Positions 11,741 through 30,240 of a stretch of 32,000 bases of DNA are shown here, one piece after another. The position numbers and the translations under genes are program-made. This stretch comes from Candidatus Electrothrix sp. GW3-4 (GTDB lineage Bacteria > Desulfobacterota > Desulfobulbia > Desulfobulbales > Desulfobulbaceae), in NCBI RefSeq assembly GCF_037902255.1, contig NZ_CP147990.1:3750001-3782000 (forward strand). The letters run 5' to 3'. Within the stretch, counting starts at the first letter, position 1. Each line of letters begins with the position of its first letter. The notes beneath the pieces are model-generated. The model was not told the origin of the DNA, made no database searches, and saw only the letters and a program-made list of their open reading frames with translations.

Positions 11741-11817
11741 GCCGTAGGGGCGACCGGCGGGTCGCCCGTTTTCAGCCGGGAGTGGTACGAGGGCAGACAC
11801 ATAGGTCTTGCCCCTAC
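11741..11817. repeat. REP-like hairpin pair forming the trailer of array 1
   Basis: Contains ggggcgaccggcgggtcgccc (11747-11767) and gggcagacacataggtcttgccc (11791-11813). Homologous to 10681-10769. Confidence 0.6.
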
Positions 11818-14800
11818 ACCATAATACCCTCTTCATAGGGTAGGTGTTCCGACCGCCAGCTTACAAAAAAGCAGCCAAACAAGGTCAGTCTTAATACCCT
11901 CTTCATAGGGTAGGTGTTCCGACGCGACAGTGGTCGTAAATCGAGGCGATTCCAGCCGTCTTAATACCCTCTTCATAGGGTAGGTGTTCCGACCTGTCCA
12001 CTCGGAGATAATGATTATAATCAGATGTCTTAATACCCTCTTCATAGGGTAGGTGTTCCGACGGCAACAACAACACGGCAGTAATGCAGAGAAAAATGTC
12101 TTAATACCCTCTTCATAGGGTAGGTGTTCCGACTGGTTTCTTCGTCGGCACTGCCCATGCAACGATGTCTTAATACCCTCTTCATAGGGTAGGTGTTCCG
12201 ACAAACCAGCAACCTTGTTCAGACGAAAATGTCGGTCTTAATACCCTCTTCATAGGGTAGGTGTTCCGACAAATGATAACGCTCGAGCGAGCGCGGATCT
12301 GCGTCTTAATACCCTCTTCATAGGGTAGGTGTTCCGACGGAGATGTTGCCAGAATATACAGAGATCAACGTCTTAATACCCTCTTCATAGGGTAGGTGTT
12401 CCGACGGGACTACGATCTACTATCTCAACAAAATCAGATCGTCTTAATACCCTCTTCATAGGGTAGGTGTTCCGACACCAGTCGCAATTGGAACGATTTA
12501 CAAAGAAGGTCTTAATACCCTCTTCATAGGGTAGGTGTTCCGACAAAAGGCGAGACTTACATGTGGACAAAGGCTGATGCGTCTTAATACCCTCTTCATA
12601 GGGTAGGTGTTCCGACAAAGCGGTTTTTTCTCCCCAAAGGCGTAGTTAAGCCTGTCTTAATACCCTCTTCATAGGGTAGGTGTTCCGACATGAAGCAGTA
12701 TCTCAACAACAGACACAAGCTCAGATTGTCTTAATACCCTCTTCATAGGGTAGGTGTTCCGACTGAAAAGTGGGTATAACACAAAGTGGGCTAAGTCTTA
12801 ATACCCTCTTCATAGGGTAGGTGTTCCGACGGCTGGCCTTGTTGGGATTCATTTTTTACCTAGGTCTTAATACCCTCTTCATAGGGTAGGTGTTCCGACG
12901 TCGTGGCAGCTCCAACCGGTCGTCGAACCAGCCGTCGTCTTAATACCCTCTTCATAGGGTAGGTGTTCCGACTATTGGTATGGTGCTTATAATAGCTTTG
13001 TTACCACTGTGTCTTAATACCCTCTTCATAGGGTAGGTGTTCCGACTCGGGCAATTGTGAAATAATATTTCTTCTAGCTGTCTTAATACCCTCTTCATAG
13101 GGTAGGTGTTCCGACTATAAGAAAAACATCCAAGAGAAGGGGTTTCAAAGTCTTAATACCCTCTTCATAGGGTAGGTGTTCCGACTATTTGAAGTTGGTT
13201 GATGAAGGTGGACAAGATGAGTCTTAATACCCTCTTCATAGGGTAGGTGTTCCGACACAAATGGATGCCTAAATCAAACCACAAACTTTGTCTTAATACC
13301 CTCTTCATAGGGTAGGTGTTCCGACTCAAATAAAAAAGATGGCGACCCCGTAAAAATGTCTTAATACCCTCTTCATAGGGTAGGTGTTCCGACACCATTT
13401 CTTATTCAGAAAATGGGATTTGGAAGTTGGTCTTAATACCCTCTTCATAGGGTAGGTGTTCCGACTATTATGAGCTACGTATTAGTTCATATAATTATGT
13501 CTTAATACCCTCTTCATAGGGTAGGTGTTCCGACCCAGCTTGCGATGCCAGGTGCCAAGCTGCCAGATGGTCTTAATACCCTCTTCATAGGGTAGGTGTT
13601 CCGACCTAGGACTTGACTTGTCGATTCATCATTTCATCAATGAGTCTTAATACCCTCTTCATAGGGTAGGTGTTCCGACGGCGGAGACTGTGATGAAGTC
13701 CCCACTGGGGACGCGTCTTAATACCCTCTTCATAGGGTAGGTGTTCCGACCATTATGGCTACGGAAGCCGATCAAGCAGTTGGTCTTAATACCCTCTTCA
13801 TAGGGTAGGTGTTCCGACATACTCCATCCTGTTCCAATGGGAATTGCCTTAGGTCTTAATACCCTCTTCATAGGGTAGGTGTTCCGACATTACTCCCTCT
13901 TGCTTCTGCACAGGCTCAATGTCCGTCTTAATACCCTCTTCATAGGGTAGGTGTTCCGACGTCATACTGCCGTCAGAATAGACCCAGTAGGCAACTGTCT
14001 TAATACCCTCTTCATAGGGTAGGTGTTCCGACAGAACGTTACGCTAACATGGCAGTAGAACTTGTCTTAATACCCTCTTCATAGGGTAGGTGTTCCGACT
14101 ATGCTGTATTTTCTGGGCTTATCAACCGAAAAGTCTTAATACCCTCTTCATAGGGTAGGTGTTCCGACGTCGGAAATTTTTGGATGTCAAAACACATCCA
14201 GTCAGTCTTAATACCCTCTTCATAGGGTAGGTGTTCCGACAAATTCAACAAATCAGGGGGGATATTATGACTTTGTCTTAATACCCTCTTCATAGGGTAG
14301 GTGTTCCGACTATCTACCGACATCCTAGTGATGGTATGAGGATTGTCTTAATACCCTCTTCATAGGGTAGGTGTTCCGACACAGAAAAACAATTAAAAAA
14401 GTGTGCGGTTGCAATACGTCTTAATACCCTCTTCATAGGGTAGGTGTTCCGACCGGTAACTATTTGAGAAAATCCGTTTATAATTACGTCTTAATACCCT
14501 CTTCATAGGGTAGGTGTTCCGACCTCTCGACGTGTTGTCGGGATGCAGACATTTCGTCTTAATACCCTCTTCATAGGGTAGGTGTTCCGACGCCGTTGGT
14601 GGTAAAAACAACTTCAGGACAGTTTGTCTTAATACCCTCTTCATAGGGTAGGTGTTCCGACTATCAAGAACGGTCCCAATTGGGGCAATTTCACAATGTC
14701 TTAATACCCTCTTCATAGGGTAGGTGTTCCGACTACTGGCTTTTGTCATGTATTCCCAACTCCCAAGTCTTAATACCCTCTTCATAGGGTAGGTGTTCCG

Positions 14801-14941
14801 ACGGCAATGCTCTTGCCCAACAACAGCGACAACAGGTCTTAATACCCTCTTCATAGGGTAGGTGTTCCGACAATACTGAAGAGGGTGATGTGAGTATTAA
14901 TATTTGTCTTAATACCCTCTTCATAGGGTAGGTGTTCCGAC
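11818..14941 (-). CRISPR. CRISPR array 1: 45 repeats of 36 bp, 44 spacers
   Basis: - **Repeats:** hand count of gtcttaataccctcttcatagggtaggtgttccgac on the plus strand. The low-coordinate terminal repeat is degenerate (accataa in place of gtcttaa).
- **Spacers:** 31-38 nt, all different within this array.
- **Why minus strand:** the conserved AT-rich leader is at the high-coordinate end and repeat decay is at the low end.
- **Repeat structure:** on the minus strand the repeat is GTCGGAACACC-TACCCT-ATGAAG-AGGGTA-TTAAGAC. That is a hairpin followed by ATTAAGAC, resembling the ATTGAAAS 8-nt crRNA handle. Confidence 0.97.
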
Positions 14942-15235
14942 AGCGGCCTTGCTTTAAACAATACTGAATTCAGTAAATTAAGCAAGTAAAAAAACGACAT
15001 GGAATCGGGTTTTGAAAGTTGTGAAAATTGAACCGGCATTACAACCGCCGATACAGGAAAATGCACGACATCGTGACTCTTTTGTCATGATCGGTATTAA
15101 AATTTGAATTTTAAGCCATTTTCTAAAACTTTTCATCGGTAAATTCAGGGTAGTAGATACTGATTTTTAATCATGACGAATAATGACAAAGAGAAAAAAT
15201 AGCCTGAAAAAATTCCATGTCCGACCGTTTTTCCC
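14942..15235 (-). promoter_or_regulatory. Leader of array 1 (294 bp)
   Basis: AT-rich and 288/294 identical to 28580-28873. On the minus strand there is a candidate promoter, TTGCTT-N16-TATTGT, ending ~20 nt before the first repeat. A perfect 14-bp palindrome, TACTGAATTCAGTA (14962-14975), lies between the two boxes. Confidence 0.75.
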
Positions 15236-15650: not shown

Positions 15651-16484
15651 TCACGCATTGGGCAGCGATTCGCCCAGAAAAATCACCTGTCGACTACTGC
15701 GGACCACCTGCGTTTTTTGGGGATGCAGAGAAAGCCCCAACTCCTCCAGCCGTTCCCCGGCAAAGGCTTCCGCTGCCAGGGCCTTTTTTTTGGTGTCGGC
15801 AAAGAGAAGGAAGTCATCGGCAAAACGGACAAAAGGAATATTTGCCCTCACCAAGGCTGTGTCGAACTGGTGCAGATAGAGATTACAAAACAGGGGCGAG
15901 AGGATGGAGCCCTGACAGACACCGCGACGATTACGGAGCAAACTGCAATGGTGCGCCCCCTGAACAAGCCATTGCTCAATCAGCTTCATGGCAGCACCAT
16001 CCCGGATAAAGCCTTTGAGCACCTTCAGTAACTGTTTATGGGGGATGGAATCAAAAAATTTCGTAATATCCGCATCCACCAGCCAGGCCTGACCAATCCG
16101 TATTCGTTCCCTGGTCTTGGCCAGAGCGGCCTGTACACTGCGGCCCGGTCGGTACCCATAAGAATCATTATGAAACAAGGCCTCGGCCTGAGGTTCCAGG
16201 ACCGTAAGCAGAGCTCGCTGCACCAGTTTGTCCCGAAGAAAATGGGCTGAGATGATCCGTTGCCCACCATCGGGCTTTGCCATAGGAAACTGGCGCAGGG
16301 GCAACGGCCTATAGGTACCGGCCAGGATATGTTCCCGGCATTCGAGAGTATGGCGGAGCAGGTGGTGCTGCAGCTCGTCTCGGGAGACACCCGGCGCCCA
16401 GGGCGTGTGTTCCCGCCGCAGGCGGCGCCAGGCTACGTCCAACACCTTCGGCGTCATGGCCTGTTCAAGCAGGGGAGTCGTCAT
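15651..16484 (-). CDS. Stand-alone reverse transcriptase (group II intron-like, fingers-palm only)
   Basis: 277 aa. RT blocks: KPDGGQRIIS (RT1), SYGYRPGRSVQAAL (RT3), LVDADITKFFDSIPH (RT4), GVCQGSILSPLFCNLYL and RFADDFLLF (RT5, YxDD as FADD), LSLHPQKTQVV (RT6/7). It ends ~55 aa after FADD, so no thumb/X domain. The ATG at 16484 overlaps the cas1 stop by 20 nt; an alternative ATG is at 16457. Confidence 0.88.
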   Translation of the reverse strand: MTTPLLEQAMTPKVLDVAWRRLRREHTPWAPGVSRDELQHHLLRHTLECREHILAGTYRPLPLRQFPMAKPDGGQRIISAHFLRDKLVQRALLTVLEPQAEALFHNDSYGYRPGRSVQAALAKTRERIRIGQAWLVDADITKFFDSIPHKQLLKVLKGFIRDGAAMKLIEQWLVQGAHHCSLLRNRRGVCQGSILSPLFCNLYLHQFDTALVRANIPFVRFADDFLLFADTKKKALAAEAFAGERLEELGLSLHPQKTQVVRSSRQVIFLGESLPNA

Positions 16485-17496
16485 AGTTCAGCCCTCTCTT
16501 TTCTCCTTGTTGCTTCATAAAGGCTCCGAACCGGGCCGTCTGCCCGTTGAGCAGTTCTCTGAGCGGAGTTGTACTCAGTTCTTCATCCTCCTCCTCTTCT
16601 CCGCTCTGATCCGGTCTCGGCCATTGTTCGCGATATTCGGCCCAGGCCGTAAAGAAGAGCGGGCGGGTTGTCTTGCTCAGGCGACAGCCCTCATCTTTTC
16701 TGTAATAAAATGGTGCCTTATCCAAGGCCGTGTCATGAAGCCAATTCAGGACAAAATGATCCACCCCGGCACGGAACAGCTCGCTGAAGTCCAGGGCCAG
16801 GGATTCCCGGCCCGGATAATCCTGATGAAGAAAGCCCAGCGAGGGATCAAAACCAGCTCGCAGCACAGCCTGGCGGACCTCGGAAAGGAGCAGGGTATAG
16901 CCGAGGGAGAGCAGGGAGTTGACCGGGTCACGGGGCGGTCTGCGGTTACGACCGGTGAAGCGCAGCTCTTCCGGGAGATATTGCGCCAACAGGGCGAACC
17001 ATGCCTGGGCCACATGCCCCTCGACTCCCAGTAAGGTTTGCAGCGAATCTACAGCATTAACCTGCTCCTGGGCTCTCAGCACTTTATCTGCGAATTGCGC
17101 ACAAGCGGGTGCAGCCTCCGGCCACAGGCCGACAAAAGCATGGAGCGGCAAGACATACCTGCTCATTTTTTCCGAGACAAACCACTTTGCCGTTTCCAGA
17201 CGCGTTGTCGAATCCGCTGCCAGCTGATGTTGCAACCTGCGCAACGGCAAACGTACAGCCAGGCCGCTGCCCAGCACAGCAGCCGGTCTTCTCCGGTCCG
17301 GGAGAATAACAACCGGAACTCCGGCTTCACCTAACACCCGCCATACCGTGGTTTCCACCAGAGGGTTGCCGTAAATCACCACCTGCTCCAAAGGATTCAA
17401 AGGAATCTGCTGGGGCTTTCTCCCCTTCTCTTGCAGCTCCAGTACACCCTCCTTATAGCGCAGGGTGCTTTTTCGACGATCAATAACAAAAATCAT
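16465..17496 (-). CDS. cas1: CRISPR-associated integrase Cas1
   Basis: The ORF is 16465..17856. The start is assigned to the ATG at 17496 (MIFVIDRRKSTLRYKEG), preceded by aggaga. Cas1 motifs: GVEGHVAQAWF, RNRRPPRDPVNSLLSLGYTLL, GFDPSLGFLHQDYPGRESLALDFSELFR. The upstream 120 codons run through REP hairpins. Confidence 0.92.
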   Translation of the reverse strand: MIFVIDRRKSTLRYKEGVLELQEKGRKPQQIPLNPLEQVVIYGNPLVETTVWRVLGEAGVPVVILPDRRRPAAVLGSGLAVRLPLRRLQHQLAADSTTRLETAKWFVSEKMSRYVLPLHAFVGLWPEAAPACAQFADKVLRAQEQVNAVDSLQTLLGVEGHVAQAWFALLAQYLPEELRFTGRNRRPPRDPVNSLLSLGYTLLLSEVRQAVLRAGFDPSLGFLHQDYPGRESLALDFSELFRAGVDHFVLNWLHDTALDKAPFYYRKDEGCRLSKTTRPLFFTAWAEYREQWPRPDQSGEEEEDEELSTTPLRELLNGQTARFGAFMKQQGEKRGLNYDDSPA

Positions 17497-17520
17497 ACAT
17501 GTTCTCCTGTGGTGCTGTAG

Positions 17521-17636
17521 AGGCAGGCCCCTGTTCCTGCCCGAAATATCGAGGTGATCATCAGGGCGAACACAGGGGTTCGCCCCTACGAAACGATAAT
17601 GATTCCGGGTAGGGACACGGCATGCCGTGTCCCTAC
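17521..17636. repeat. Three GC-rich hairpins between the cas2-like gene and cas1
   Basis: The three are ggcagg-N8-cctgcc (17522-17541), gggcgaac-acaggg-gttcgccc (17564-17585), and the perfect 28-nt palindrome gtagggacacggcatgccgtgtccctac (17609-17636), which overlaps the cas2-like stop codon. Confidence 0.7.
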
Positions 17637-18013
17637 GCCCTCTCTTTCCCGCCAAACAGACGACGGAAAAACCGCCCTGCTCTTGATGGCGTTTGTTTCG
17701 GAACAGACCCTCCATACAGACCGTGCAATTTGTCGTTCTGCCTTCCAGCGGTCCAGACAGCACCGGGATAAGGAACAGGATAAAGGCGTACATCGTCTTC
17801 CTTATCATTAACCCGAGCCAGCACCCCAGCCACCACCTCCTCCAAATCGATGACATCGGCTTTCAAGAGAAAGACCGACCTCTGCACAGAAACTCCCCGT
17901 TTCTTGCAGAAATAATGGAGCCTGCGCAGCCTTTTTTCATGCCGAACATCATAGGCAAGCAGGTACCATTGTGCCTCTCCTCGCTTTCCTTTGCTTTGCC
18001 GTGTCGTATCCAT
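17633..18013 (-). CDS. cas2: Second Cas2-like protein (126 aa, C-terminal extension)
   Basis: The pattern WYLLAYDVRHEKRLRRLHYFCKKRGVSVQRSVFLLK ... DDVRLYPVP follows the Cas2 ferredoxin-fold pattern (YD, Q-SVF, D-vR-Y). A ~40-aa basic tail extends beyond the core. Confidence 0.7.
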   Translation of the reverse strand: MDTTRQSKGKRGEAQWYLLAYDVRHEKRLRRLHYFCKKRGVSVQRSVFLLKADVIDLEEVVAGVLARVNDKEDDVRLYPVPYPGAVWTAGRQNDKLHGLYGGSVPKQTPSRAGRFFRRLFGGKERA

Positions 18014-18036
18014 TGTCTTTTTTCATCATATTCGTA

Positions 18037-18070
18037 GGAGCAGGGGCACGGCATGCCGTGCCCCTGCTCC
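18037..18070. repeat. Perfect 34-nt palindrome between the two cas2 genes
   Basis: ggagcaggggcacggcatgccgtgcccctgctcc. Its core GGGGCACGGCATGCCGTGCCCC is shared with the elements at 17609-17636 and 19061-19090. Confidence 0.75.
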
Positions 18071-18094
18071 CCGATTCGTTTCGCCCGCCGCCCC

Positions 18095-18379
18095 CTACCC
18101 CATATACAAAATCGGCACTTTGAAGCCGATACCGCTACACTTGGTCAAACCACGGGCCTTCCTGCTCCCGTCCAAAGGAGCCAGCAGGAGCATATCCTGT
18201 TCCTCATGAAGCAGGTCAGTAAGCTGAAGAAACAGCTCCGACGCCTCAGCCTGGGTCAGCTTGCACTCAAAAACAGAGTACTGGGCCGACAACTTCCATT
18301 TCTTCAAAACCCGGAACAGTTTGCGACGACGTTTATTATCTGTGATATCATAGGCAATCACCATCGCTCTCCGTTTCAT
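18095..18379 (-). CDS. cas2: CRISPR-associated endoribonuclease Cas2
   Basis: 94 aa. MVIAYDITDNKRRRKLFRVLKKWKLSAQYSVFECKL is the canonical Cas2 N-terminus. Confidence 0.85.
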   Translation of the reverse strand: MKRRAMVIAYDITDNKRRRKLFRVLKKWKLSAQYSVFECKLTQAEASELFLQLTDLLHEEQDMLLLAPLDGSRKARGLTKCSGIGFKVPILYMG

Positions 18380-18381
18380 AT

Positions 18382-18948
18382 TCAGGGCACCTGCTCATGA
18401 TCTACATTTTCACTGACAATGTTACGGAACTCGTCCAGGAGCTGATCCATCGTATCAAGAAAGTCATCGACAGATTTCTCCAGGCGCTGTTTTTCCCTGT
18501 CCCTGATACACTGGGTTTTGTAGCGCTCCAGCTTTTGGAAACGCTCGTCAATGTCGCTGAGAAATTCTTCAGAAAGGACATTCAACTGATTGGCAACCTG
18601 CTGATATATCTTTCCGAAATGCTCCATCCGTTGCTGACGTAAACTGGTTTTTCCCGTCACCAGGACATGGTTACAGGCTTCACGGATAGAATGAAGGCGA
18701 GTCTCCATAACCAAGCTCAACGCTTGGCGTCGATGCTTAAATCCAACTGACAGCTCTGCCATTAAATGCTCCCGGACAAGCTGGCGCTCCTGCCTATTAA
18801 AAACCGTGGGGATCATACTGCGGTTATGCCGTCCCATCGTTTTGAGTACCAGTTGTTCGTTATCCTCACCCCGACTGGCAGCCTCTTCCGGCAGCCTTTT
18901 CAGGTAATCATTAACATCTGCTTGTGGTTCTCTATGATCAGAATGCAT
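18382..18948 (-). CDS. Uncharacterised 188-aa all-helical/coiled-coil protein, translationally coupled to cas2
   Basis: Its stop TGA (18384-18382) lies 2 nt from the cas2 ATG (18379). RBS aaggagaaaatATG. Charged heptad-like C-terminal half (ERFQKLERYKTQCIRDREKQRLEKSVDDFLDTMDQLLDEF). I recognise no family. Confidence 0.6.
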   Translation of the reverse strand: MHSDHREPQADVNDYLKRLPEEAASRGEDNEQLVLKTMGRHNRSMIPTVFNRQERQLVREHLMAELSVGFKHRRQALSLVMETRLHSIREACNHVLVTGKTSLRQQRMEHFGKIYQQVANQLNVLSEEFLSDIDERFQKLERYKTQCIRDREKQRLEKSVDDFLDTMDQLLDEFRNIVSENVDHEQVP

Positions 18949-19016
18949 ATTTTCTCCTTACAATTAAATTTGTTGACTCAATGGCTAAAGAATAGCTGTT
19001 TGAGTATTTTTTGCCG

Positions 19017-19036
19017 TTCCCGCAAGGTTGCGAGAA
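19017..19036 (-). promoter_or_regulatory. Inverted-repeat motif TTCcCGCAAggTTGCGaGAA (site 1 of 3)
   Basis: Imperfect 20-bp palindrome ~78 nt upstream of the 188-aa gene ATG. Related copies lie at 20285-20302 and 30224-30240. Confidence 0.45.
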
Positions 19037-19060
19037 AAATTTTACATACGGTGTTGTTGC

Positions 19061-19090
19061 CGTAGGGACACGGCGCGCCGTGCCCCTACG
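19061..19090. repeat. 30-nt near-perfect palindrome (REP-like)
   Basis: cgtagggacacggcgcgccgtgcccctacg with one mismatch. It lies between the membrane-protein gene and the 188-aa gene. Confidence 0.7.
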
Positions 19091-19131
19091 GGAATTGCAA
19101 AATTTTCGGGCAAACCACACAGGGTTCCCCC

Positions 19132-20214
19132 TTACGCAACAGCATTTTTCAGGTGGGCCTCCGCCTCTTTGACCACCCGTTTACCAGCCCTGCGCACCCG
19201 ATGAACAGCAGCCCCGTGCAGCAGATCATCCCGTTCCGCCTCGCCATTGACATGTGCTTTCAGCGTTTCTTTTTCCACAGCCTCCTGATGATGCGCCATA
19301 AAGACCGGAACCACAGCAATGGTCAGCGTGGAAAAGGCCAACATGATTCCGGCTTCCAGCAGGGCAGAAATCAAAATAGAAAACAGAAAGACAAACTGAA
19401 GCGGCAAGAGCGTCCGGTTCCATAAGGACTCAACCACTTGGAGAAAGGCGATGACATGCGGTTCGTTGGCTCGTTTATCCTCTGAATAATCAAGTTCCTG
19501 AATTCCTTTTCGTTCCTGTTCTGTTGCCACTTCTATCGCCTCTCTCTCCTTCCTGAATTCGGCAGCCAACATGGAAGCTGCATCAGCTGCATGCCGATCA
19601 AACTCCATAAGGGCCTGCTGCTGTCCGGTTTTTTCCTGAGCCAGACGCTGTGCAAATTCCTCATATCTGGGGCCTCGAAACGTACCTCGGACCGTGTTGC
19701 CCATTTCCTGAAGCAGGAGAGACTCCAATTGTTGAATACGCTGCCCCCATTGCTCCTGAACAGCCTTTCTTTTTTGTGCCTGGCCTGCTTGGGCAGTGAC
19801 TTTTCGGGCATTGTACAAACGCTCTGCTTCGATAAGACGCTCCTCGTGCCGTTGCTCCACAGCCTCCAGCTCAGCGGTCCGCACTTTCTCCAGACCAGGG
19901 CGATCAAGGCGGGCAGAGAGAAAAAGCATGGAACAAAGCAGGGAAAGGAAGACCAGGCCCAAGCGAAAAAAAAGCGAGATCAGACGAACCGTGGTCGGAT
20001 ACTCGTGGTCGGAAAGATGGTGGAGATAATAATGCCAGATAATGGCTGAGATTTTACCGCATTCCAAGGTAACAGCCAGCAACAGAGCAAGGGGCTGCGG
20101 ACTAAAAAAAGAGCTCAGAACCCGGTATTCAAGAAAGAATGAGCAGACGAAGAGGCCGATACCAACAATAAGTTGCACCAGCCAACTTCCTTTAAAAAAG
20201 ACGGACAAAAACAT
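19132..20214 (-). CDS. Uncharacterised membrane protein: 3 N-terminal TM helices, ~170-aa coiled coil, C-terminal TM hairpin (360 aa)
   Basis: The ORF is 19132..20292. The start is assigned to the ATG at 20214 (MFLSVFFKGSW), preceded by ggaggg. Hydrophobic segments: LVQLIVGIGLFVCSFFL, LALLLAVTLECGKISAIIW, LISLFFRLGLVFLSLLCSMLFL, LQFVFLFSILISALLEAGIMLAFSTLTIAVVPVF. The central region is charged and Q/E/R-rich. No family recognised. Confidence 0.6.
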   Translation of the reverse strand: MFLSVFFKGSWLVQLIVGIGLFVCSFFLEYRVLSSFFSPQPLALLLAVTLECGKISAIIWHYYLHHLSDHEYPTTVRLISLFFRLGLVFLSLLCSMLFLSARLDRPGLEKVRTAELEAVEQRHEERLIEAERLYNARKVTAQAGQAQKRKAVQEQWGQRIQQLESLLLQEMGNTVRGTFRGPRYEEFAQRLAQEKTGQQQALMEFDRHAADAASMLAAEFRKEREAIEVATEQERKGIQELDYSEDKRANEPHVIAFLQVVESLWNRTLLPLQFVFLFSILISALLEAGIMLAFSTLTIAVVPVFMAHHQEAVEKETLKAHVNGEAERDDLLHGAAVHRVRRAGKRVVKEAEAHLKNAVA

Positions 20215-20284
20215 CAGACAACCCTCCAGAGTTGAATAAGAATCTTGAAGGGTGACTATGCCGCAAAAAGGAAAACCCTGCCTG

Positions 20285-20302
20285 TCCGGCAAGGTTGCGG
20301 GA
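20285..20302 (-). promoter_or_regulatory. Inverted-repeat motif (site 2 of 3)
   Basis: tccggcaaggttgcggga, ~79 nt upstream of the ATG at 20214. Confidence 0.4.
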
Positions 20303-20442
20303 TGGAATAACGGGAGAGGGAGGGAAGAAAGGAGGGGGCTGTCAGATCCCCTTTGCTGTGATGAGGGTCTCTAGGCGCGACCGGCGGTAGCCCGGATTTT
20401 TCATGGGCATAAAAAAAAGGCGATCACAAGGACCGCCTCTTC

Positions 20443-20476
20443 GCCTTAAACCCCTCTTCATAGGGTAGGTGTTGAC
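20443..20476 (-). repeat. Solitary degenerate CRISPR repeat (orphan 2)
   Basis: gccttaaacccctcttcatagggtaggtgtt--gac compared with the array repeat has 3 substitutions and a 2-nt deletion. On the minus strand a weak hairpin plus T8 (about 20445-20411) follows it. Confidence 0.75.
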
Positions 20477-20492
20477 AATTTTAACGGCCTGT

Positions 20493-20864
20493 TTACACGG
20501 AATTTATTTTCGCAAGCGTTGCAATGGGTTTTAAACGGGAAATCTTTTTTGCTTCCGGGCTGTTCATGGCGTGCCAAAGATCCCAATCCTGCTGGAGTCC
20601 CAACCAGAAGTCCGCTGACATACCAAGCACCTGAGATAGCCGAAGGGCAGTGGATGGAGTGATTGAACGTCGCTCCTTAAGGATATCAATAAGAGAAGAG
20701 TATGAAACATCCAAACGTCGAGCAAATTCTTTTCTTGTTATACCCAGGGGTTTGATAAACTCCTCGGCAAGCATCTCGCCGGGATGCGTCGGAGGGCGTT
20801 GCCGGGGCAGGCGCCGACCGGCTGGTCTTTCAGTGGTAGTCAGTGATTTCGACTTCGCATGCAT
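20493..20864 (-). CDS. higA: HigA-family HTH antitoxin
   Basis: The ORF is 20493..21083. The start is assigned to the ATG at 20864 (MHAKSKS), which overlaps the higB end by 35 nt. HigA-type block: THPGEMLAEEFIKPLGITRKEFARRLDVSYSSLIDILKERRSITPSTALRLSQVLGMSADFWLGLQ. Confidence 0.8.
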   Translation of the reverse strand: MHAKSKSLTTTERPAGRRLPRQRPPTHPGEMLAEEFIKPLGITRKEFARRLDVSYSSLIDILKERRSITPSTALRLSQVLGMSADFWLGLQQDWDLWHAMNSPEAKKISRLKPIATLAKINSV

Positions 20865-21123
20865 GGCTGTTCTCCCATTGAAAGCAGATTCGATACTGCT
20901 GATTAATTCGTATGCTGTATTGATCATCCCGGTCACCTCTGAGGCGTTCCAGGCGGTTTCCAGGAGGAATCCTGAGTTCACCGATTTCTCTGATTCGGTT
21001 GATTTGATCCAGCTTTCGACGGGCCACAGGCCAAATGGACTTCGGACAGCATTTTCTTGCAGCTCGGGATGCTGAGCCGTCAAAAATATCTTCTGTACCC
21101 GCGTTTTTGAACGACTGTATCAT
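20830..21123 (-). CDS. higB: HigB toxin (RelE/ParE superfamily, 'plasmid maintenance system killer' type)
   Basis: 97 aa. MIQSFKNAGTEDIF ... LRIPPGNRLERLRGDRDDQYSIRINQQYRICF is typical of HigB. A perfect TATAAT box lies on the minus strand at 21135-21130, just upstream. Confidence 0.85.
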   Translation of the reverse strand: MIQSFKNAGTEDIFDGSASRAARKCCPKSIWPVARRKLDQINRIREIGELRIPPGNRLERLRGDRDDQYSIRINQQYRICFQWENSHACEVEITDYH

Positions 21124-21202
21124 AGATCAATTATATCTCATTCCATGACAGGCGTACAGAGTAATTCCTTGTTCTTGTGTTTGACTGATGTTTTTCGTGG
21201 GC

Positions 21203-21231
21203 ACAAAAAAAGGGCGACCGACCGGTCGCCC
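21203..21231 (-). terminator. Intrinsic terminator directly after orphan repeat 3
   Basis: Minus strand reads GGGCGACC-GGTC-GGTCGCCC (8-bp GC stem) followed by TTTTTTT. Confidence 0.6.
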
Positions 21232-21235
21232 TTAC

Positions 21236-21271
21236 ATCTTAATACCCTCTTCATAGGGTAGGTGTTTCAAT
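21236..21271 (-). repeat. Solitary degenerate CRISPR repeat (orphan 3)
   Basis: atcttaataccctcttcatagggtaggtgtttcaat matches the array repeat at 32/36 positions, with the hairpin intact. Confidence 0.85.
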
Positions 21272-21299
21272 AGTTATCAACAAGCTGACGAGTTTCCCG

Positions 21300-21605
21300 T
21301 CAAACTCTTTCTCGCCAGTAATCCGGTTGACGGTGCAGATGCATCACTGCGATGACCTGAATGACAGTTTCTTTGACTCGATAGATGAGTCCGTACGGGA
21401 ATCGGTGAATAATGTAGCGTCTGATACCACTGTCTTTATCAAGCAAAGGCCAGATCTCAGGCGAGTCCCTCACTGTCTCAATGGCCTGATCCACCTCATT
21501 GAGAAACTTTATTCCGAGATTGGTCGCCTGCCTCTCGTACCAGGTGCGAGAATATTCCAGCTCAGGATAGACATCCGGGTGCAGGTCAACGCTGTACTTT
21601 GGCAT
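21300..21605 (-). CDS. RelE/ParE-family toxin
   Basis: The ORF is 21300..21665. The start is assigned to the ATG at 21605 (MPKYSVDLHPDV). The C-terminal RRYIIHRFPYGLIYRVKETVIQVIAVMHLHRQPDYW is ParE/RelE-like. Overlaps the upstream antitoxin by 20 nt. Confidence 0.7.
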   Translation of the reverse strand: MPKYSVDLHPDVYPELEYSRTWYERQATNLGIKFLNEVDQAIETVRDSPEIWPLLDKDSGIRRYIIHRFPYGLIYRVKETVIQVIAVMHLHRQPDYWRERV

Positions 21606-21831
21606 TTCGATACAGGCGTTTTTTGACTTCCTCCCACGGGGTACAGTTAACAGCACCGGAGTCAATATCGTTCAACCGTCTGTCAATCTCCTTTTGCCAC
21701 GCATGCCAAATTTCCCTATCTAGGGGAGCTTCAAGACTGGCAAGCAGGGCCTCTGCTATGTGTGCTCGTTCGGCTTCTGGTCGTTTAAGGGCACTATCCA
21801 GTATTTTCTCCGCAACCGTTATGCTCATCAT
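21586..21831 (-). CDS. Putative addiction-module antitoxin (81 aa)
   Basis: Contains ERAHIAEALLASLE ... WHAWQKEIDRRLNDIDSG ... WEEVKKRL, the pattern of the small 'addiction module component' antitoxins. Coupled to the toxin gene. Confidence 0.65.
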   Translation of the reverse strand: MMSITVAEKILDSALKRPEAERAHIAEALLASLEAPLDREIWHAWQKEIDRRLNDIDSGAVNCTPWEEVKKRLYRNAKVQR

Positions 21832-21842
21832 GTTTCTCCGTT

Positions 21843-21859
21843 TTACATAGTTTATGTAA
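21843..21859 (-). promoter_or_regulatory. Candidate TA operator palindrome
   Basis: ttacata-gtt-tatgtaa, with 7-bp arms, immediately upstream of the RBS (ggaga) of the antitoxin gene. Confidence 0.4.
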
Positions 21860-21912: not shown

Positions 21913-24900
21913 GCTGTAATACCCTCTTCATAGGGTAGGTGTTCCGACAAAGAGCAAGTTGTCAAAGCGCCCCCGTTCTCGGTCTTAATACCCTCTTCAT
22001 AGGGTAGGTGTTCCGACCCACAGAGACAAGCTCAGAGACAAGCTCAGAAAAGTCTTAATACCCTCTTCATAGGGTAGGTGTTCCGACAGACCTGCTGGTG
22101 TAGGAATAACGAGTCAGATCTGTCTTAATACCCTCTTCATAGGGTAGGTGTTCCGACAATGGTTTCGCCCCGTAAGTAATCATAAGGGCGAGACTAAAAC
22201 AACCGTCTTAATACCCTCTTCATAGGGTAGGTGTTCCGACTTACACGTTTTATGTTACGTAGGCTTGCCAATGGTGTCTTAATACCCTCTTCATAGGATA
22301 GGTGTTCCGACGGAGAGAAGGTGCCAGAAGACTATAACTCGTCGGAGGTCTTAATACCCTCTTCATAGGGTAGGTGTTCCGACTTAGCTTGATATTACAA
22401 TTCATCACAACTTTATTAGGTCTTAATACCCTCTTCATAGGGTAGGTGTTCCGACTGAATTCAATTCAGGAGAGCAGTATTTTTATGTCTTAATACCCTC
22501 TTCATAGGGTAGGTGTTCCGACTTAGCTTGATATTACAATTCATCACAACTTTATTAGGTCTTAATACCCTCTTCATAGGGTAGGTGTTCCGACTGAATT
22601 CAATTCAGGAGAGCAGTATTTTTATGTCTTAATACCCTCTTCATAGGGTAGGTGTTCCGACAACAATAATTCCCTCAACCGACCCCCTCGCTTGTCTTAA
22701 TACCCTCTTCATAGGGTAGGTGTTCCGACAAGGGAGATGTTATGAGTGATCGTTAGAAATGGTCTTAATACCCTCTTCATAGGGTAGGTGTTCCGACTGT
22801 TGAATTATGGAGAATACGTTATCTAGTGGGCGTCTTAATACCCTCTTCATAGGGTAGGTGTTCCGACGAAAGGGATGCTTTGAAACGCTTATTACAGGAA
22901 GTCTTAATACCCTCTTCATAGGGTAGGTGTTCCGACAACAAAGGAGTTACTTATGTCATCACTGAACTGAGTCTTAATACCCTCTTCATAGGGTAGGTGT
23001 TCCGACTGGAGCTAAGACCAAAAGGGAGCACAAGCTTATTGTCTTAATACCCTCTTCATAGGGTAGGTGTTCCGACTTATTTGAGACACCTGAATGCAAA
23101 GACCCAGAATGTCTTAATACCCTCTTCATAGGGTAGGTGTTCCGACTGTTTCCAGATGACAACAGAGCATCCTTCTTTGAGTCTTAATACCCTCTTCATA
23201 GGGTAGGTGTTCCGACTGGAGCTAAGACCAAAAGGGAGCACAAGCTTATTGTCTTAATACCCTCTTCATAGGGTAGGTGTTCCGACCTCACAGCGAAAGA
23301 AAGAGGTAAATTTGCAAAGGTCTTAATACCCTCTTCATAGGGTAGGTGTTCCGACAAAAAAGATATTTGCTAAGAACATAATAGTCAAAGCGTCTTAATA
23401 CCCTCTTCATAGGGTAGGTGTTCCGACGCATTCGGTTGTTAACTAATCGCTTGCCTAAAACTCTGTCTTAATACCCTCTTCATAGGGTAGGTGTTCCGAC
23501 TGAAGAGGTTGAACAGGCTCGCCCTGTTCACGGTCTTAATACCCTCTTCATAGGGTAGGTGTTCCGACTATGTCAAAAATGTGAAACAACATGGAAACCG
23601 TCTTAATACCCTCTTCATAGGGTAGGTGTTCCGACCGATTGACGTTTCCAGTGCAACTGTTTTTTGTCTTAATACCCTCTTCATAGGGTAGGTGTTCCGA
23701 CGACACCTCCTCATCGAGGTAGAAGGAGTCTTTTGTCTTAATACCCTCTTCATAGGGTAGGTGTTCCGACGAAAGAAAGTCCCAAATGGGAACAACTGTG
23801 GATGTCTTAATACCCTCTTCATAGGGTAGGTGTTCCGACAGGGGAGGCTGGGAAACGGGTCGCTTTACAGAGGTCTTAATACCCTCTTCATAGGGTAGGT
23901 GTTCCGACAGATCAATCGCGTACAAGGAACAACATCTGCCGTGGCGTCTTAATACCCTCTTCATAGGGTAGGTGTTCCGACTGGTTTACACGCCAGTTGA
24001 GGTTGATGGATCAGTCTTAATACCCTCTTCATAGGGTAGGTGTTCCGACGAGGAACTGCCATATCTAAACGGATGGGGAGTTCGGTCTTAATACCCTCTT
24101 CATAGGGTAGGTGTTCCGACCGCTGTCGCAGTTCAACCAAAACCGCATTGCCGTCTTAATACCCTCTTCATAGGGTAGGTGTTCCGACAAGTAGAAACCG
24201 ATGTAGCAGAAGGAAACTACCCGGTCTTAATACCCTCTTCATAGGGTAGGTGTTCCGACAGGGCTCTTGCTGGGGTCCAGCACATTCCTGTACTTGTCTT
24301 AATACCCTCTTCATAGGGTAGGTGTTCCGACTCTGCCGTCGCCTGTGACAGAAGAAACCGAGAAGTCTTAATACCCTCTTCATAGGGTAGGTGTTCCGAC
24401 GTGAACAAAGGCGGGAAAGGTCATAAAGACGATGTCTTAATACCCTCTTCATAGGGTAGGTGTTCCGACGTTTATATCCCATTTATGGGATGCTATTATC
24501 ACGTCTTAATACCCTCTTCATAGGGTAGGTGTTCCGACGCATATCAATGATCCTGTGGGCAAAGAGATGGCGTCTTAATACCCTCTTCATAGGGTAGGTG
24601 TTCCGACCGAATTATTACTACAATTGGCAAATAAAGAGGGTGTCTTAATACCCTCTTCATAGGGTAGGTGTTCCGACAGGTGAGCTGTACTATACAGATT
24701 GCTTGCCTACTGTCTTAATACCCTCTTCATAGGGTAGGTGTTCCGACAGGGGAATCTCGTGTAGCAGGATGAACTATTGGTCTTAATACCCTCTTCATAG
24801 GGTAGGTGTTCCGACCCAGAGGTCGTGCAGATGGGAGAGCTGGTTGATGTCTTAATACCCTCTTCATAGGGTAGGTGTTCCGACGGCTTGCGGCTCATGC

Positions 24901-27900
24901 CGGAGCACATATTCCCAAAAGTCTTAATACCCTCTTCATAGGGTAGGTGTTCCGACACAAGTGTTCACTGTATTGGTGAGCAGAATCGAGTCTTAATACC
25001 CTCTTCATAGGGTAGGTGTTCCGACGCATGTAAAAGTCTGTTGAGAGCTTTCTGGTCCAAGTCTTAATACCCTCTTCATAGGGTAGGTGTTCCGACATTG
25101 CGGGGGCGAAAACCAGCAACCTTGTTCAGTCTTAATACCCTCTTCATAGGGTAGGTGTTCCGACGAGGAACTGCCATATCTAAACGGATGGGGAGTTCGG
25201 TCTTAATACCCTCTTCATAGGGTAGGTGTTCCGACCGCTGTCGCAGTTCAACCAAAACCGCATTGCCGTCTTAATACCCTCTTCATAGGGTAGGTGTTCC
25301 GACAAGTAGAAACCGATGTAGCAGAAGGAAACTACCCGGTCTTAATACCCTCTTCATAGGGTAGGTGTTCCGACAGGGCTCTTGCTGGGGTCCAGCACAT
25401 TCCTGTACTTGTCTTAATACCCTCTTCATAGGGTAGGTGTTCCGACTCTGCCGTCGCCTGTGACAGAAGAAACCGAGAAGTCTTAATACCCTCTTCATAG
25501 GGTAGGTGTTCCGACGTGAACAAAGGCGGGAAAGGTCATAAAGACGATGTCTTAATACCCTCTTCATAGGGTAGGTGTTCCGACGTTTATATCCCATTTA
25601 TGGGATGCTATTATCACGTCTTAATACCCTCTTCATAGGGTAGGTGTTCCGACGCATATCAATGATCCTGTGGGCAAAGAGATGGCGTCTTAATACCCTC
25701 TTCATAGGGTAGGTGTTCCGACCGAATTATTACTACAATTGGCAAATAAAGAGGGTGTCTTAATACCCTCTTCATAGGGTAGGTGTTCCGACAGGTGAGC
25801 TGTACTATACAGATTGCTTGCCTACTGTCTTAATACCCTCTTCATAGGGTAGGTGTTCCGACAGGGGAATCTCGTGTAGCAGGATGAACTATTGGTCTTA
25901 ATACCCTCTTCATAGGGTAGGTGTTCCGACCCAGAGGTCGTGCAGATGGGAGAGCTGGTTGATGTCTTAATACCCTCTTCATAGGGTAGGTGTTCCGACG
26001 GCTTGCGGCTCATGCCGGAGCACATATTCCCAAAAGTCTTAATACCCTCTTCATAGGGTAGGTGTTCCGACACAAGTGTTCACTGTATTGGTGAGCAGAA
26101 TCGAGTCTTAATACCCTCTTCATAGGGTAGGTGTTCCGACGCATGTAAAAGTCTGTTGAGAGCTTTCTGGTCCAAGTCTTAATACCCTCTTCATAGGGTA
26201 GGTGTTCCGACATTGCGGGGGCGAAAACCAGCAACCTTGTTCAGTCTTAATACCCTCTTCATAGGGTAGGTGTTCCGACGGGGCAGGACCCTCTATTCGG
26301 GAGGCAAATGAAAAGTCTTAATACCCTCTTCATAGGGTAGGTGTTCCGACCAGGGACAGGATCGTGCTGGCAACTTGATCTGTGTCTTAATACCCTCTTC
26401 ATAGGGTAGGTGTTCCGACGTTTCTTTAAAATCTAACCTTTCTCCGATGTCTTAATACCCTCTTCATAGGGTAGGTGTTCCGACTTTAAAAAAGCCGTTA
26501 AAACAAACTTATGTGGTGCGTCTTAATACCCTCTTCATAGGGTAGGTGTTCCGACAATGGATACATGCAGGAGGCTTTTGCCTACACAGTGGTCTTAATA
26601 CCCTCTTCATAGGGTAGGTGTTCCGACTGCGGTTGGTTTAATAGTAGGAGCCTTTCTCATGTCTTAATACCCTCTTCATAGGGTAGGTGTTCCGACGGAG
26701 AAATTTACCGTGGAAAAGAAATATTTTACAGTCTTAATACCCTCTTCATAGGGTAGGTGTTCCGACACTTACGGTCGGGTTATCCGTTCAAACATGGATG
26801 CGTCTTAATACCCTCTTCATAGGGTAGGTGTTCCGACGGAGCCTCCTAAATAGGATGTATTGTTGGGTGGGTCTTAATACCCTCTTCATAGGGTAGGTGT
26901 TCCGACAGCTTTCAACGCCATTACGGTTCTCGTAGCTGGGTCTTAATACCCTCTTCATAGGGTAGGTGTTCCGACAATGTGAATGCTCCTCTGAATGGCT
27001 CGGCTACGACGTCTTAATACCCTCTTCATAGGGTAGGTGTTCCGACTCTTAGAGATGTAATGTCGCCTGCTCACACTATGGTCTTAATACCCTCTTCATA
27101 GGGTAGGTGTTCCGACGAGAGTTTCTGGCATGCTGGGAAGTAATCTGGGTCTTAATACCCTCTTCATAGGGTAGGTGTTCCGACTATTTGGCGGTTACAG
27201 ATGCCATAAGGCGAAGTCTTAATACCCTCTTCATAGGGTAGGTGTTCCGACGTACATCACGTTGAACCAAGTTAACCAACAAAACGTCTTAATACCCTCT
27301 TCATAGGGTAGGTGTTCCGACACACTTATCCTCTTAAGGAGGCTGTTCCATGAGTCTTAATACCCTCTTCATAGGGTAGGTGTTCCGACGAAGAGAGGGG
27401 CTTTAACCCCGCTTGTATATGTGGTCTTAATACCCTCTTCATAGGGTAGGTGTTCCGACAGCAGCAAAAGGAACAACCGCCGTAGTTGCTATGTCTTAAT
27501 ACCCTCTTCATAGGGTAGGTGTTCCGACTTTCTGCCTGACCCTAACGGAGAAAGGGGGCCGTCTTAATACCCTCTTCATAGGGTAGGTGTTCCGACGTCA
27601 GCCAGAAAATGCAGCTGGAGGACTTGTTTGTCTTAATACCCTCTTCATAGGGTAGGTGTTCCGACAGCAGCAAAAGGAACAACCGCCGTAGTTGCTATGT
27701 CTTAATACCCTCTTCATAGGGTAGGTGTTCCGACAGAGGACTCCGCCTTTACAGGGGCACAATCAGGTGGTCTTAATACCCTCTTCATAGGGTAGGTGTT
27801 CCGACAATAGCACTGGAGAGAGCACTAAGCGTAAATAATAAGTCTTAATACCCTCTTCATAGGGTAGGTGTTCCGACACCTTCTACAAAGATGATAACGG

Positions 27901-29023: not shown

Positions 29024-30142
29024 TCAACTAATCAATATATCCTTCGGTTCCATTTCAACAACATACCCTGCCTGTCCGTTAACCTCCACGGTTTGAATAA
29101 GAAAAGGACGGGCCGCCCGCTCCCCAAGCACCAACACCACAGCCTTTTTCAGCTTGGATTTTCGCTGAAGGAACCATTCCTTCTGCTGAGCAGCATCTCG
29201 ACCCCGAGCCACTTCCTCCACCCGCTCAATCCGTCCGCTCCATTCGCCGACAATGCGGGCATAAACCTGGATATATTCATCAACAAAGGCGTCTTCATCC
29301 GGGATAAAGGGCGGTTCTCCGTTTTTGCGGCGCTCGCACATCCAGAGGTACAGGGCCAGATCCGCATCCCCCATGCGCACCTCCAGAGCATTCAGCCGCA
29401 CCTGCTTGCGACGAATATCAATTTCAATGGTCTCAGGACTGGAAAAACGCTGAATAGTTTCAACAGTCTCCTGAAACCCGGCACTGCCTGTAAGCAGGGC
29501 TTCCGGGATCTGATACCGCATCCGGACAAAAGGAATATCGGAGAGGATGATTTGAGATTCCTCAGTGGAATACCAGGTGTTGTTGACCGCAATGCGTTGG
29601 GGGCGGGGCGGAGGGTAGAAAAAATTCTTGTTTTCCTGAAAGGGTTTCGCCACCAGGACATGGGAAAGGCGGTCCTGCATCCGTCCGTACAGGCTCAGGG
29701 CATAGCCCGCATAATAGGACATGGTTTTACGACCTCCGGCTAGGGAAAGGTGGAGCGCAGCCTGATTGTCTTCAGTAAAGCGCCTGACCTGCTCGGTGAT
29801 AAAATCCGCTGTCATGGTGTTGTGCTCCGCCGATTCAGTATCATCAACAAAAGGTCCGTCCGGGCCTGTTATTGTATGGACCTGGCCGGATGCAAAGGAG
29901 ATGCCTTCCAGGCAGTAATCCTCACAAAAACGATGAAATTCCCCTTTGTCGCCCCCGACCCCGAGCAGGGCGTTCCGGGCGGAGTTTGCGCCTTGAGCCG
30001 TGCTGATCAGGTGGATTTCCGTGGGCACAAAGGCCGGGCTGCTGTCCACGGCCAGTTTGTACAGGGTTTCCGTAAGGATTTGTGGAGTCATGCCGATGAC
30101 GGCAAGGAGGATGCGGCGGGGATATTCGTGGGGTTGCGGCAT
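29024..30142 (-). CDS. CRISPR-associated CARF-like protein (NE0113/TIGR02584-like N-terminus) with C-terminal extension, possibly wHTH
   Basis: 372 aa. The N-terminus RILLAVIGMTPQILTETLYKL and the later SLAGGRKTMSYY and SHVLV match what I recall of the Cas_NE0113 Rossmann-like family. The C-terminal ~150 aa (DADLALYLWMCERRKNG...) are unassigned. The family assignment is from memory, not a search. Confidence 0.6.
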   Translation of the reverse strand: MPQPHEYPRRILLAVIGMTPQILTETLYKLAVDSSPAFVPTEIHLISTAQGANSARNALLGVGGDKGEFHRFCEDYCLEGISFASGQVHTITGPDGPFVDDTESAEHNTMTADFITEQVRRFTEDNQAALHLSLAGGRKTMSYYAGYALSLYGRMQDRLSHVLVAKPFQENKNFFYPPPRPQRIAVNNTWYSTEESQIILSDIPFVRMRYQIPEALLTGSAGFQETVETIQRFSSPETIEIDIRRKQVRLNALEVRMGDADLALYLWMCERRKNGEPPFIPDEDAFVDEYIQVYARIVGEWSGRIERVEEVARGRDAAQQKEWFLQRKSKLKKAVVLVLGERAARPFLIQTVEVNGQAGYVVEMEPKDILIS

Positions 30143-30223
30143 GGTTCGGGCTCCGGGTACGTGGTGAATCGGCGGGTTGCAATTTCGCCGTTATGGTACC
30201 CGGTTTAAGCGGGAATTGCCCAG

Positions 30224-30240
30224 GCCGCAGGGTTGCGGGA
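30224..30240 (-). promoter_or_regulatory. Inverted-repeat motif (site 3 of 3)
   Basis: ggccgcagggttgcggga, ~90 nt upstream of the ATG of the CARF-like gene (30142). Confidence 0.4.

Follow-up and report, generated by a model that had tools for sequence, protein, structure and literature searches.

A predicted membrane protein and its helical partner head a reverse-transcriptase-linked CRISPR adaptation cassette in Candidatus Electrothrix

CRISPR reverse transcriptases (RTs) that are unfused and encoded beside Cas1, often with two Cas2 proteins, make up Toro clade 13 (Silas branch 7). A related module, RT-Cas1-Cas2A-Cas2B of V. vulnificus, belongs to clade 6 and needs both Cas2 proteins. A further point of reference is UAS-9, catalogued with FLSHclust by Altae-Tran et al. 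(2023, Science; PMC10910872, supplement). The entry reads "DUF4407 + other protein", is placed in the acquisition class and has the sequences uas9A and uas9B. In the supplement passages concerned, it comprises one representative locus, the sequences and an association score. This score is 23/39.3, meaning 23 CRISPR-linked loci over an effective sample size of 39.3. Main text passages of the same paper mention adaptation modules linked with unexpected genes, such as those for transmembrane (TM) proteins. Here, we describe two genes, p360 and p188, in a 32,000-nucleotide stretch of Candidatus Electrothrix sp. GW3-4 (contig NZ_CP147990.1, positions 3,750,001 to 3,782,000). We refer to this whole stretch as the window and number positions within it. 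Judged from sequence, p360 and p188 are real genes and the first two cistrons of a six-gene, RT-linked type III adaptation cassette.

The order of genes in the cassette is p360-p188-cas2a-cas2b-cas1-RT, with CRISPR arrays on both sides. Every relevant feature of the window is on the minus strand. The six genes, with the evidence for each, are as follows. AF2 denotes AlphaFold2 and ORF denotes open reading frame.

19132..20214, minus strand: p360 (uas9A-type), 360 aa, predicted polytopic membrane protein with a coiled-coil hairpin (ORF, homology, AF2, hydropathy)
18382..18948, minus strand: p188 (uas9B-type), 188 aa, predicted soluble all-helical protein (ORF, homology, AF2)
18095..18379, minus strand: cas2a, 94 aa (Pfam CRISPR_Cas2 E 6.6e-16; TIGR01573)
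17633..18013, minus strand: cas2b, 126 aa, a second, distinct Cas2 (Pfam CRISPR_Cas2 E 1.2e-12)
16465..17496, minus strand: cas1, 343 aa from an ATG at about 17496 (TIGR00287 E 1e-55; Pfam Cas_Cas1)
15651..16484, minus strand: unfused group-II-intron-type RT, 277 aa (RVT_1 E 1.1e-36)

The first two genes correspond to uas9A and uas9B. In BLASTP alignments, p360 is 41% identical to uas9A over 362 aa (E 3e-87) and p188 is 49% identical to uas9B over 179 aa (E 3e-65). Both protein families, the adjacency of the genes and the linkage to CRISPR arrays and adaptation genes are the same. We conclude from these alignments that the pair is UAS-9, catalogued in 2023, and that the Electrothrix locus is a further member. 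Hence, the association between the pair and adaptation has been on public record since that year. A preliminary description of this DNA had proposed a new accessory pair of an RT-linked adaptation module. Synteny, co-inheritance and tracking of the RT, described below, strongly support an accessory pair; UAS-9 removes the claim to novelty. What we add is the anatomy of the pair, its spread, its RT linkage and its regulatory context. Statements on anatomy, RT linkage, spread, regulation or function of UAS-9 were not found in the main text or supplement passages searched. A literature search found no follow-up work on UAS-9, and the pair is not described in Silas 2017, Toro 2017 and 2018, Gonzalez-Delgado 2019 and 2021, Shah 2018 or Makarova 2025.

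We gathered loci from species-representative genomes, metagenomes and contigs encoding homologues, and mapped the six window proteins onto each. Individual loci are numbered with the prefix L. The cas2a gene directly follows p188 in 21 of the 22 distinct loci with a p188 homologue. Loci reaching far enough to show cas2b, cas1 and RT (18 of the 22) have these in the same order. Wherever the flank suffices p360 is upstream of p188; in two lineages, a toxin-antitoxin pair is inserted between them. In 11 of the 24 locus rows listed, p188 and cas2a either overlap or are at most 9 nt apart. Hosts belong to two phyla. Those in Desulfobacterota are Ca. Electrothrix, Desulfosarcina ovata and a deltaproteobacterial metagenome-assembled genome (MAG). 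Those in Gammaproteobacteria are Leucothrix, Thiotrichaceae, Thiocapsa, Lamprocystis, Methylomarinum and Granulosicoccaceae. In most loci the cassette adjoins Cmr (III-B) genes, and in L025 it adjoins a Csx19/RAMP (III-D-like) set. Outside CRISPR loci we found no close homologues, except for a single orphan p188 in Sedimenticola.

One Thiotrichaceae genome differs in its downstream genes. At 9663-10605 of L004/L013, the cas2a match is confined to residues 1-56, the Cas2 gene as called being 67 aa, and there is no cas2b. The cas1 match covers only residues 108-329 and the p188, p360 and RT matches are nearly full-length. A TumE/HVO_A0114 pair lies between the p360 and p188 homologues in this genome.

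Co-inheritance was assessed by comparing pairwise-identity matrices of the six proteins over 16 loci. The matrices correlate with r between 0.69 and 0.91 (Mantel p <= 5e-4). The value for p360 against Cas1 is 0.91, equal to that for Cas1 against RT. Such correlated matrices indicate that the six genes are inherited as one unit. RT is the best-conserved protein of the cassette, with a mean pairwise identity of 66%, and is 63-91% identical across related loci. The pair is retained with RT relatives of at least 53% identity, except in L033. Conversely, it is missing with RTs of at most 41% identity, which occur in other arrangements.

The RT is group-II-intron-like (RVT_1, TIGR04416-like) and is a separate gene adjoining cas1, in a cassette with two distinct Cas2 genes. 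Its start overlaps the cas1 stop and there is no RT-Cas1 fusion. In gene make-up the cassette is like Toro clade 13 or Silas branch 7; an unfused RT by cas1, two Cas2 proteins and a type III context are common to both. The V. vulnificus module likewise has a group-II-intron-type RT with Cas1, two different Cas2 proteins and a type III context. Compared with TIGR04416 (group II intron RT/maturase), the Electrothrix protein matches model positions 3-266 of 353. Hence, the 277-aa RT stops right after the polymerase domain and has no counterpart of the C-terminal X/thumb-maturase part. We speculate that an RT of this kind could plausibly use a partner or helper protein. For cas1, the mechanically called ORF extends to 17856 and the Pfam Cas_Cas1 match begins at its residue 124. 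Cas1 homologues align from MIFVIDRR, which supports a start at about 17496.

The p360 gene starts with an ATG at 20214, preceded by a GGAGGG ribosome-binding site, and homologues begin at the same residue. Its TAA stop is at 19134-19132, leaving 183 nt to the p188 ATG. Hydropathy identifies three hydrophobic helices near the N-terminus (about residues 10-30, 41-60 and 78-100). A helical, charged region of 168 aa follows (27 K+R, 30 D+E, 18 Q). AF2 folds this region into an antiparallel coiled-coil hairpin, with arms at 108-171 and 184-240 and a small beta tip. Next is a hydrophobic stretch of 40 residues (268-307), then a basic amphipathic tail. This stretch is long enough for a TM hairpin, and we suggest from its length that it may form one. 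Hence, the preliminary description was right about the three N-terminal helices, the coiled-coil region and the intergenic gap; the C-terminal TM hairpin that it also listed is a prediction, and AF2 gives a single helix. Outside the membrane helices, conservation of p360 is highest in two soluble parts: LDRPNL at the stalk base and EMDNVxxGxFxGPRY at the stalk tip. Charged or polar residues within the membrane helices are also invariant (E29, E51, K54, H61, R84 and E287). The family comprises 17 clusters at 90% identity and reaches 302 representatives at E<=1e-3 when searched exhaustively with a profile.

The p188 gene has its ATG at 18948 and, 7 nt before it, an AAGGAG ribosome-binding site. 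Its TGA stop (18384-18382) is 2 nt before the cas2a ATG at 18379. The protein has 29 K+R and 33 D+E residues and no hydrophobic segment (19-aa Kyte-Doolittle maximum 0.38). AF2 models it as three long helices, with a predicted local distance difference test score (pLDDT) of 78. Coordinates, composition and model thus agree with the charged, helical protein, ending 2 nt before cas2, reported at the outset. Homologues of p188 form 71 clusters at 90% identity. For both p188 and p360, the closest relatives are in Candidatus Electrothrix genomes (91% and 81% identity). In the p188 motif EACNHVLVTGKTHLRQQR, the C, N and H are not kept in distant homologues. The core that survives in these is L[IV]xGK-x3-R[RQK][EQ]R-x-EF. 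Loss of the former and retention of the latter suggest that p188 is structural rather than catalytic. We considered whether p188 is a HEPN-like RNase, given that REACNH fits Rx4H (R89-x4-H94 in the window protein), and rejected this. R89 is Q or K in 3 of 26 sequences and the motif is absent from the distant homologues in L113 and L115. There is no HEPN match in Pfam, and AF2 gives long helices and no bundle fold.

Neither protein matched a family in Pfam, NCBIfam or PADLOC. Sequence-profile searches of the PDB returned nothing for either. Foldseek against the PDB and BFVD returned only generic coiled-coil or helical matches (E >= 0.008), with TM-scores of at most 0.38 for p360 and 0.49 for p188. 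No enzymatic signature was detected by Pfam, NCBIfam, PADLOC or PDB profiles, and no CARF, SAVED or other nucleotide-sensor domain by Pfam, NCBIfam or PADLOC. These searches agree with the earlier statement that neither protein has a recognisable Cas family or enzymatic motif. A phage or plasmid origin was also considered and rejected, with no homologues in IMG/VR or PLSDB.

DUF4407 (PF14362), to which Pfam assigns no function, is the only Pfam family that recurs, weakly, among p360 relatives. The label was given to P0080 by UniRef and to uas9A by Altae-Tran et al. Window p360 has no match to this family even at E<=1. Weak matches occur in 2 of 16 close relatives (best E 0.004) and 8 of 47 distant relatives (best E 3.4e-6). 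One distant relative scores 15.8 bits, against a gathering score of 31.3 bits. The overall architecture is the same: membrane helices at the N-terminus, then a long coiled coil, then a hydrophobic helix at the C-terminus. Furthermore, a bona fide member occupies the position of the pair in metagenomic locus L033 (758-2173), where the RT is 59-69% identical. This 471-aa protein (Pfam E 1.2e-41) replaces the pair directly before cas2a. Comparison of p360 profiles with this single protein, using hhalign and hidden Markov model (HMM) searches, gave no match. Hence, membership of DUF4407 is unproven for p360 despite the shared architecture, as hhalign and HMMs did not demonstrate direct homology to the L033 member. 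We also rejected p188 as a split-off C-terminal part of longer DUF4407 proteins, as it has no similarity to the 471-aa protein.

L015, from a gammaproteobacterial MAG, has an extra 257-aa ORF between p188 and cas2a (1072-1845). Its product is hydrophobic at the N-terminus and has a Q-rich region; the ORF overlaps the p188 stop codon, and 1 nt separates its end from cas2a. The 466 nt upstream show no p360. In L016, from a Methylomarinum MAG, the p188-cas2a gap is 758 nt, a spacing like that in L015 (about 770 nt extra). A membrane-type protein therefore recurs at this position of the cassette, in L033 and L015.

Five more distant contexts (L111-L115) were sampled from the p360 superfamily. The order in L115 is p360-like, p188-like, RT, cas2, cas2. 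In L113 (6278-8101), it is MotA_ExbB, p360-like, p188-like, small membrane protein, RT. The L114 contig ends after a p360-like/p188-like pair. The remaining two contexts, L111 and L112, have a p360-like gene with no p188. Taken together, the pair tracks RT and the membrane protein alone is more general. By their sequence content, these contexts point to a wider membrane module used by several conflict-type systems.

We next consider the DNA upstream of the two genes. The regions share an exact 11-mer, CGCAACCTTGC, which extends to a 21-nt motif, CGCAACCYTGC-N6-GGCA. A third copy lies upstream of a gene for an NE0113-family CARF protein. The preliminary description had reported a shared inverted repeat at 19017-19036 and 20285-20302. 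The signal is real; its coordinates are corrected here, it is larger, and it contains a short dyad only (TTGC...GCAA). The motif copies, the gene beside the third copy and a separate family of palindromes in the same operon are listed below.

20279..20299, minus strand: motif copy 1, CGCAACCTTGCCGGACAGGCA, 75 nt upstream of the p360 ATG; kept in L006 8617-8637
19012..19032, minus strand: motif copy 2, CGCAACCTTGCGGGAACGGCA, 74 nt upstream of the p188 ATG; kept in L006 9886-9906 and L007 1020-1040
30217..30237, minus strand: motif copy 3, CGCAACCCTGCGGCCTGGGCA, upstream of the NE0113 CARF gene; kept in L006 5671-5691
29024..30142, minus strand: NE0113-family CARF protein, 372 aa (Pfam Cas_NE0113 E 1e-40)
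19062..19090, no strand assigned: GC-rich palindrome in the p360-p188 gap; RNA hairpin of -28 kcal/mol
18040..18068, no strand assigned: GC-rich palindrome of the same family in the cas2a-cas2b gap; -39 kcal/mol; equivalent position in L007
17609..17637, no strand assigned: GC-rich palindrome of the same family in the cas2b-cas1 gap; equivalent positions in L006 and L007

Three motif matches in the window compare with none in any of 100 shuffles. The motif is retained in two other Electrothrix genomes amid otherwise diverged spacers. All three copies are kept in Ca. Electrothrix laxa, where intergenic DNA has otherwise diverged. The NE0113 orthologue of E. laxa (88% identical) has the upstream motif, and is oriented differently there. 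The two copies adopt different RNA folds, so we rejected a conserved RNA hairpin, and a DNA-level site is more likely. A sigma-54 promoter was dismissed by eye, since TTGC and GGCA are neither ordered nor spaced as in the -24/-12 pattern. A sigma-70 scan gave no promoter-like site there, and Rfam found nothing at gathering score in 14800-22100.

The palindromes are perfect and GC-rich (GTAGGGRCACGGCRYGCCGTGYCCCTAC) and in the window occur only in intergenic gaps of the adaptation operon. Copies in other Electrothrix are at L006 11328-11349 and at L007 1989-2010 and 2420-2441. They may be repetitive extragenic palindromic (REP)-like elements, or hairpins that process or stabilise the transcript. 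They were rejected as the signal shared by p360 and p188, being a separate, genus-specific family with no copy before p360. The strong hairpin and second motif copy between p360 and p188 suggest two co-regulated units and not one obligatory transcript. Hence, the single transcript envisaged earlier is weakened.

NE0113 CARF proteins lack effector domains, and Makarova et al. (2014) predicted that they regulate transcription. We found no detectable DNA-binding domain in the C-terminal 135 aa of the window protein. The shared motif nevertheless makes it a candidate regulator acting at these sites. We regard the pair, the adaptation genes and the NE0113 CARF gene of Electrothrix as a probable single regulon controlled by this protein, which possibly also regulates itself as the third unit. 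A described parallel is Csa3a, a CARF-HTH activator of adaptation genes in Sulfolobus (PMC7515695, PMC6546367). The likeness is confined to the regulatory layer: an effector-less CARF protein, and a motif common to its own promoter region and the adaptation genes. Csa3a belongs to a CARF family other than NE0113, and binding of the motif is a candidate activity. By analogy, a cyclic oligoadenylate (cOA)-responsive regulon, comparable to Csa3a control of adaptation genes, is a reasonable hypothesis.

The remaining features of the window are arranged around the cassette as follows.

21913..27460 (about), minus strand: CRISPR array 2, 36-nt repeat, upstream of the operon beyond two toxin-antitoxin pairs
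21300-21831, minus strand: ParE-like toxin-antitoxin pair, followed by a lone degenerate CRISPR repeat
20493-21123, minus strand: HigBA toxin-antitoxin pair, followed by a lone degenerate CRISPR repeat
20440..20475, minus strand: lone degenerate CRISPR repeat with a terminator-like hairpin, upstream of the p360 promoter region; same arrangement in L006 at about 8473-8530
Between RT and CRISPR array 1, minus strand: hicB
11815..14982, minus strand: CRISPR array 1, 36-nt repeat, directly downstream of RT and hicB

Beyond array 2 are the NE0113-family CARF gene, a HepT gene and cas6. The ends of type III repeats indicate the orientation of an array. On the minus strand the repeat ends in ATTAAGAC; hence, the arrays are probably transcribed in the same direction as the genes. 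Array 2 contains internal duplications of multi-spacer blocks that are 100% identical (24011-24310 / 25126-25425 and 22348-22486 / 22487-22625). Other lone degenerate repeats are at 21235-21270 and 10779-10810, and each is followed by a terminator-like hairpin. The lone repeats at 20440-20475 and 21235-21270 flank HigBA, and the ParE-like genes lie between the second of these and array 2. This layout suggests that the trailer end of array 2 received the toxin-antitoxin genes by insertion.

What might the pair do? We tentatively favour an accessory module, anchored in the membrane, by which RT-dependent spacer capture is positioned or gated, an account that is quite possible and short of probable. 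Briefly, p360 would sit in the inner membrane via its three N-terminal helices and C-terminal hydrophobic hairpin. It would project an antiparallel coiled-coil stalk of ~95 Angstrom into the cytoplasm. In turn, p188 would be a non-enzymatic cytoplasmic helical adaptor, made in step with Cas2a and, in sister cassettes, encoded directly before RT. The adaptor would bridge the p360 stalk to the RT-Cas1-Cas2a/b integrase. The pair would then hold or gate RT-dependent spacer capture at the cytoplasmic membrane. Acquisition could thereby be coupled to envelope events, either nucleic-acid entry or membrane perturbation. In this account, the topology in the membrane, the contacts of p188 with p360 and with the integrase, the tethering or gating role and the choice of regulator are all inferred.

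Several observations weigh against this account. The V. vulnificus module acquires spacers in E. coli without proteins of this type (PMC6821258), so the pair is not generally required for RT-linked adaptation. The AF2 models are moderately confident (pLDDT 73-78, predicted TM-score 0.42) and residues 268-307 of p360 appear as a single continuous helix. The topology, and with it the cytoplasmic position of the stalk, is predicted from the positive-inside rule only. The strong intergenic hairpins could uncouple expression of the cassette genes. The orphan p188 homologue of Sedimenticola (L021-L024; 192-749 of L024) is 43% identical and adjoins housekeeping genes at a contig end. The contigs of three independent Sedimenticola assemblies all end 190-640 nt upstream of this gene, suggesting a repeat at that point. 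Finally, two p360-like genes without p188 are in non-CRISPR surroundings. That in L112 (8001-11465) lies between integrases with a Zn-ribbon protein and a 686-aa P-loop NTPase; that in L111 (259-2485) is beside ExbB/ExbD-like proteins, as judged by sequence pattern. Hence, the membrane part may be a general module whose role could be sensing or killing, and not tethering.

A sensing role is the first such alternative. Here, p360 would be an envelope sensor or transducer that detects phage-induced perturbation of the membrane or proton-motive force, possibly with MotA/ExbB-type channels. Rather than tethering the integrase, p188 would relay the signal and switch the adaptation complex or its expression. 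We regard this as somewhat unlikely. Zorya ZorA offers a precedent, being a sensor embedded in the membrane whose long cytoplasmic coiled-coil tail recruits soluble effectors. The likeness is in manner of working only: a membrane anchor and long cytoplasmic coiled coil upstream of soluble nucleic-acid enzymes. Of the 5 distant contexts, 2 do have MotA/ExbB-family genes beside the p360-like gene: L113 and, judged by sequence pattern, L111. The invariant intramembrane charged and polar residues of p360, and its probable place in a regulon with a CARF regulator, would also suit a sensor. However, no MotA/ExbB gene is beside the pair in the window or close loci. Pfam finds neither a MotA_ExbB (PF01618) nor any sensor domain in p360, and no PF01618 match in any of 63 family members scanned. 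Unlike ZorA, p360 has no MotA_ExbB sequence relation, partners adaptation enzymes and not nucleases, and has a hairpin stalk of about 60 residues per arm in place of a long multi-subunit tail. Tight coupling of p188 to cas2a also suggests stoichiometric partners, not a catalytic switch.

Killing, the other role raised by these contexts, would make p360 a pore-forming or membrane-disrupting protein restrained by p188, serving abortive infection as a back-up defence or addiction device. Type III loci often carry membrane effectors (Shmakov 2018), the window is rich in toxin-antitoxin pairs and the p360-like gene of L112 is in an integrase-flanked island with a P-loop NTPase. DUF4407-type proteins also recur near CRISPR; besides UAS-9, the catalogue passages of Altae-Tran et al. 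(PMC10910872) include UAS-109 and vWA+DUF4407. Yet p360 and p188 lack a second-messenger sensor domain such as CARF or SAVED, unlike the type III membrane effectors Cam1, Csx23 and CorA-type proteins. The pair is linked to adaptation genes and RT, not effector genes, and stays when the effector type changes. No phage or plasmid homologues (IMG/VR, PLSDB) or PADLOC matches point to such a device, which we consider distinctly unlikely. It is very improbable that the pair has no CRISPR role and is simply inherited with the cassette by linkage. The lack of a demonstrated function and the orphan p188 outside any cas context would fit such hitch-hiking. Against it, order and orientation are kept down to 30-35% identity and across both phyla, and the ORFs are intact in every locus. 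The p360 and p188 distance matrices match those of Cas1 and RT, and analogous membrane-type proteins occur at the same position in other loci.

The favoured membrane-anchored module can be extended to include regulation. In this fuller form, the pair would physically recruit the integrase to the cytoplasmic membrane, capture of spacers from RNA or DNA would be spatially gated to points of foreign nucleic-acid entry or envelope disturbance, and the unit would be switched on through the 21-nt motif by the NE0113 CARF protein sensing cyclic oligoadenylate. The full combination is unlikely. If true, this would make it the first CRISPR adaptation machinery localised to a membrane, and type III interference signalling would feed back directly on acquisition in bacteria.

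The pair provides a concrete, testable handle on two questions: how RT-linked CRISPR systems select what they record, and where in the cell acquisition occurs. Across two phyla, one entire lineage of RT adaptation cassettes has retained this predicted membrane-anchored module. Should the pair tether or gate the integrase, spacer capture would be under spatial control. The pair could also matter for RNA-recording tools built from unfused-RT cassettes, which may fail in heterologous hosts that lack it. The motif shared with the CARF regulator gene is a possible link between type III signalling and adaptation.

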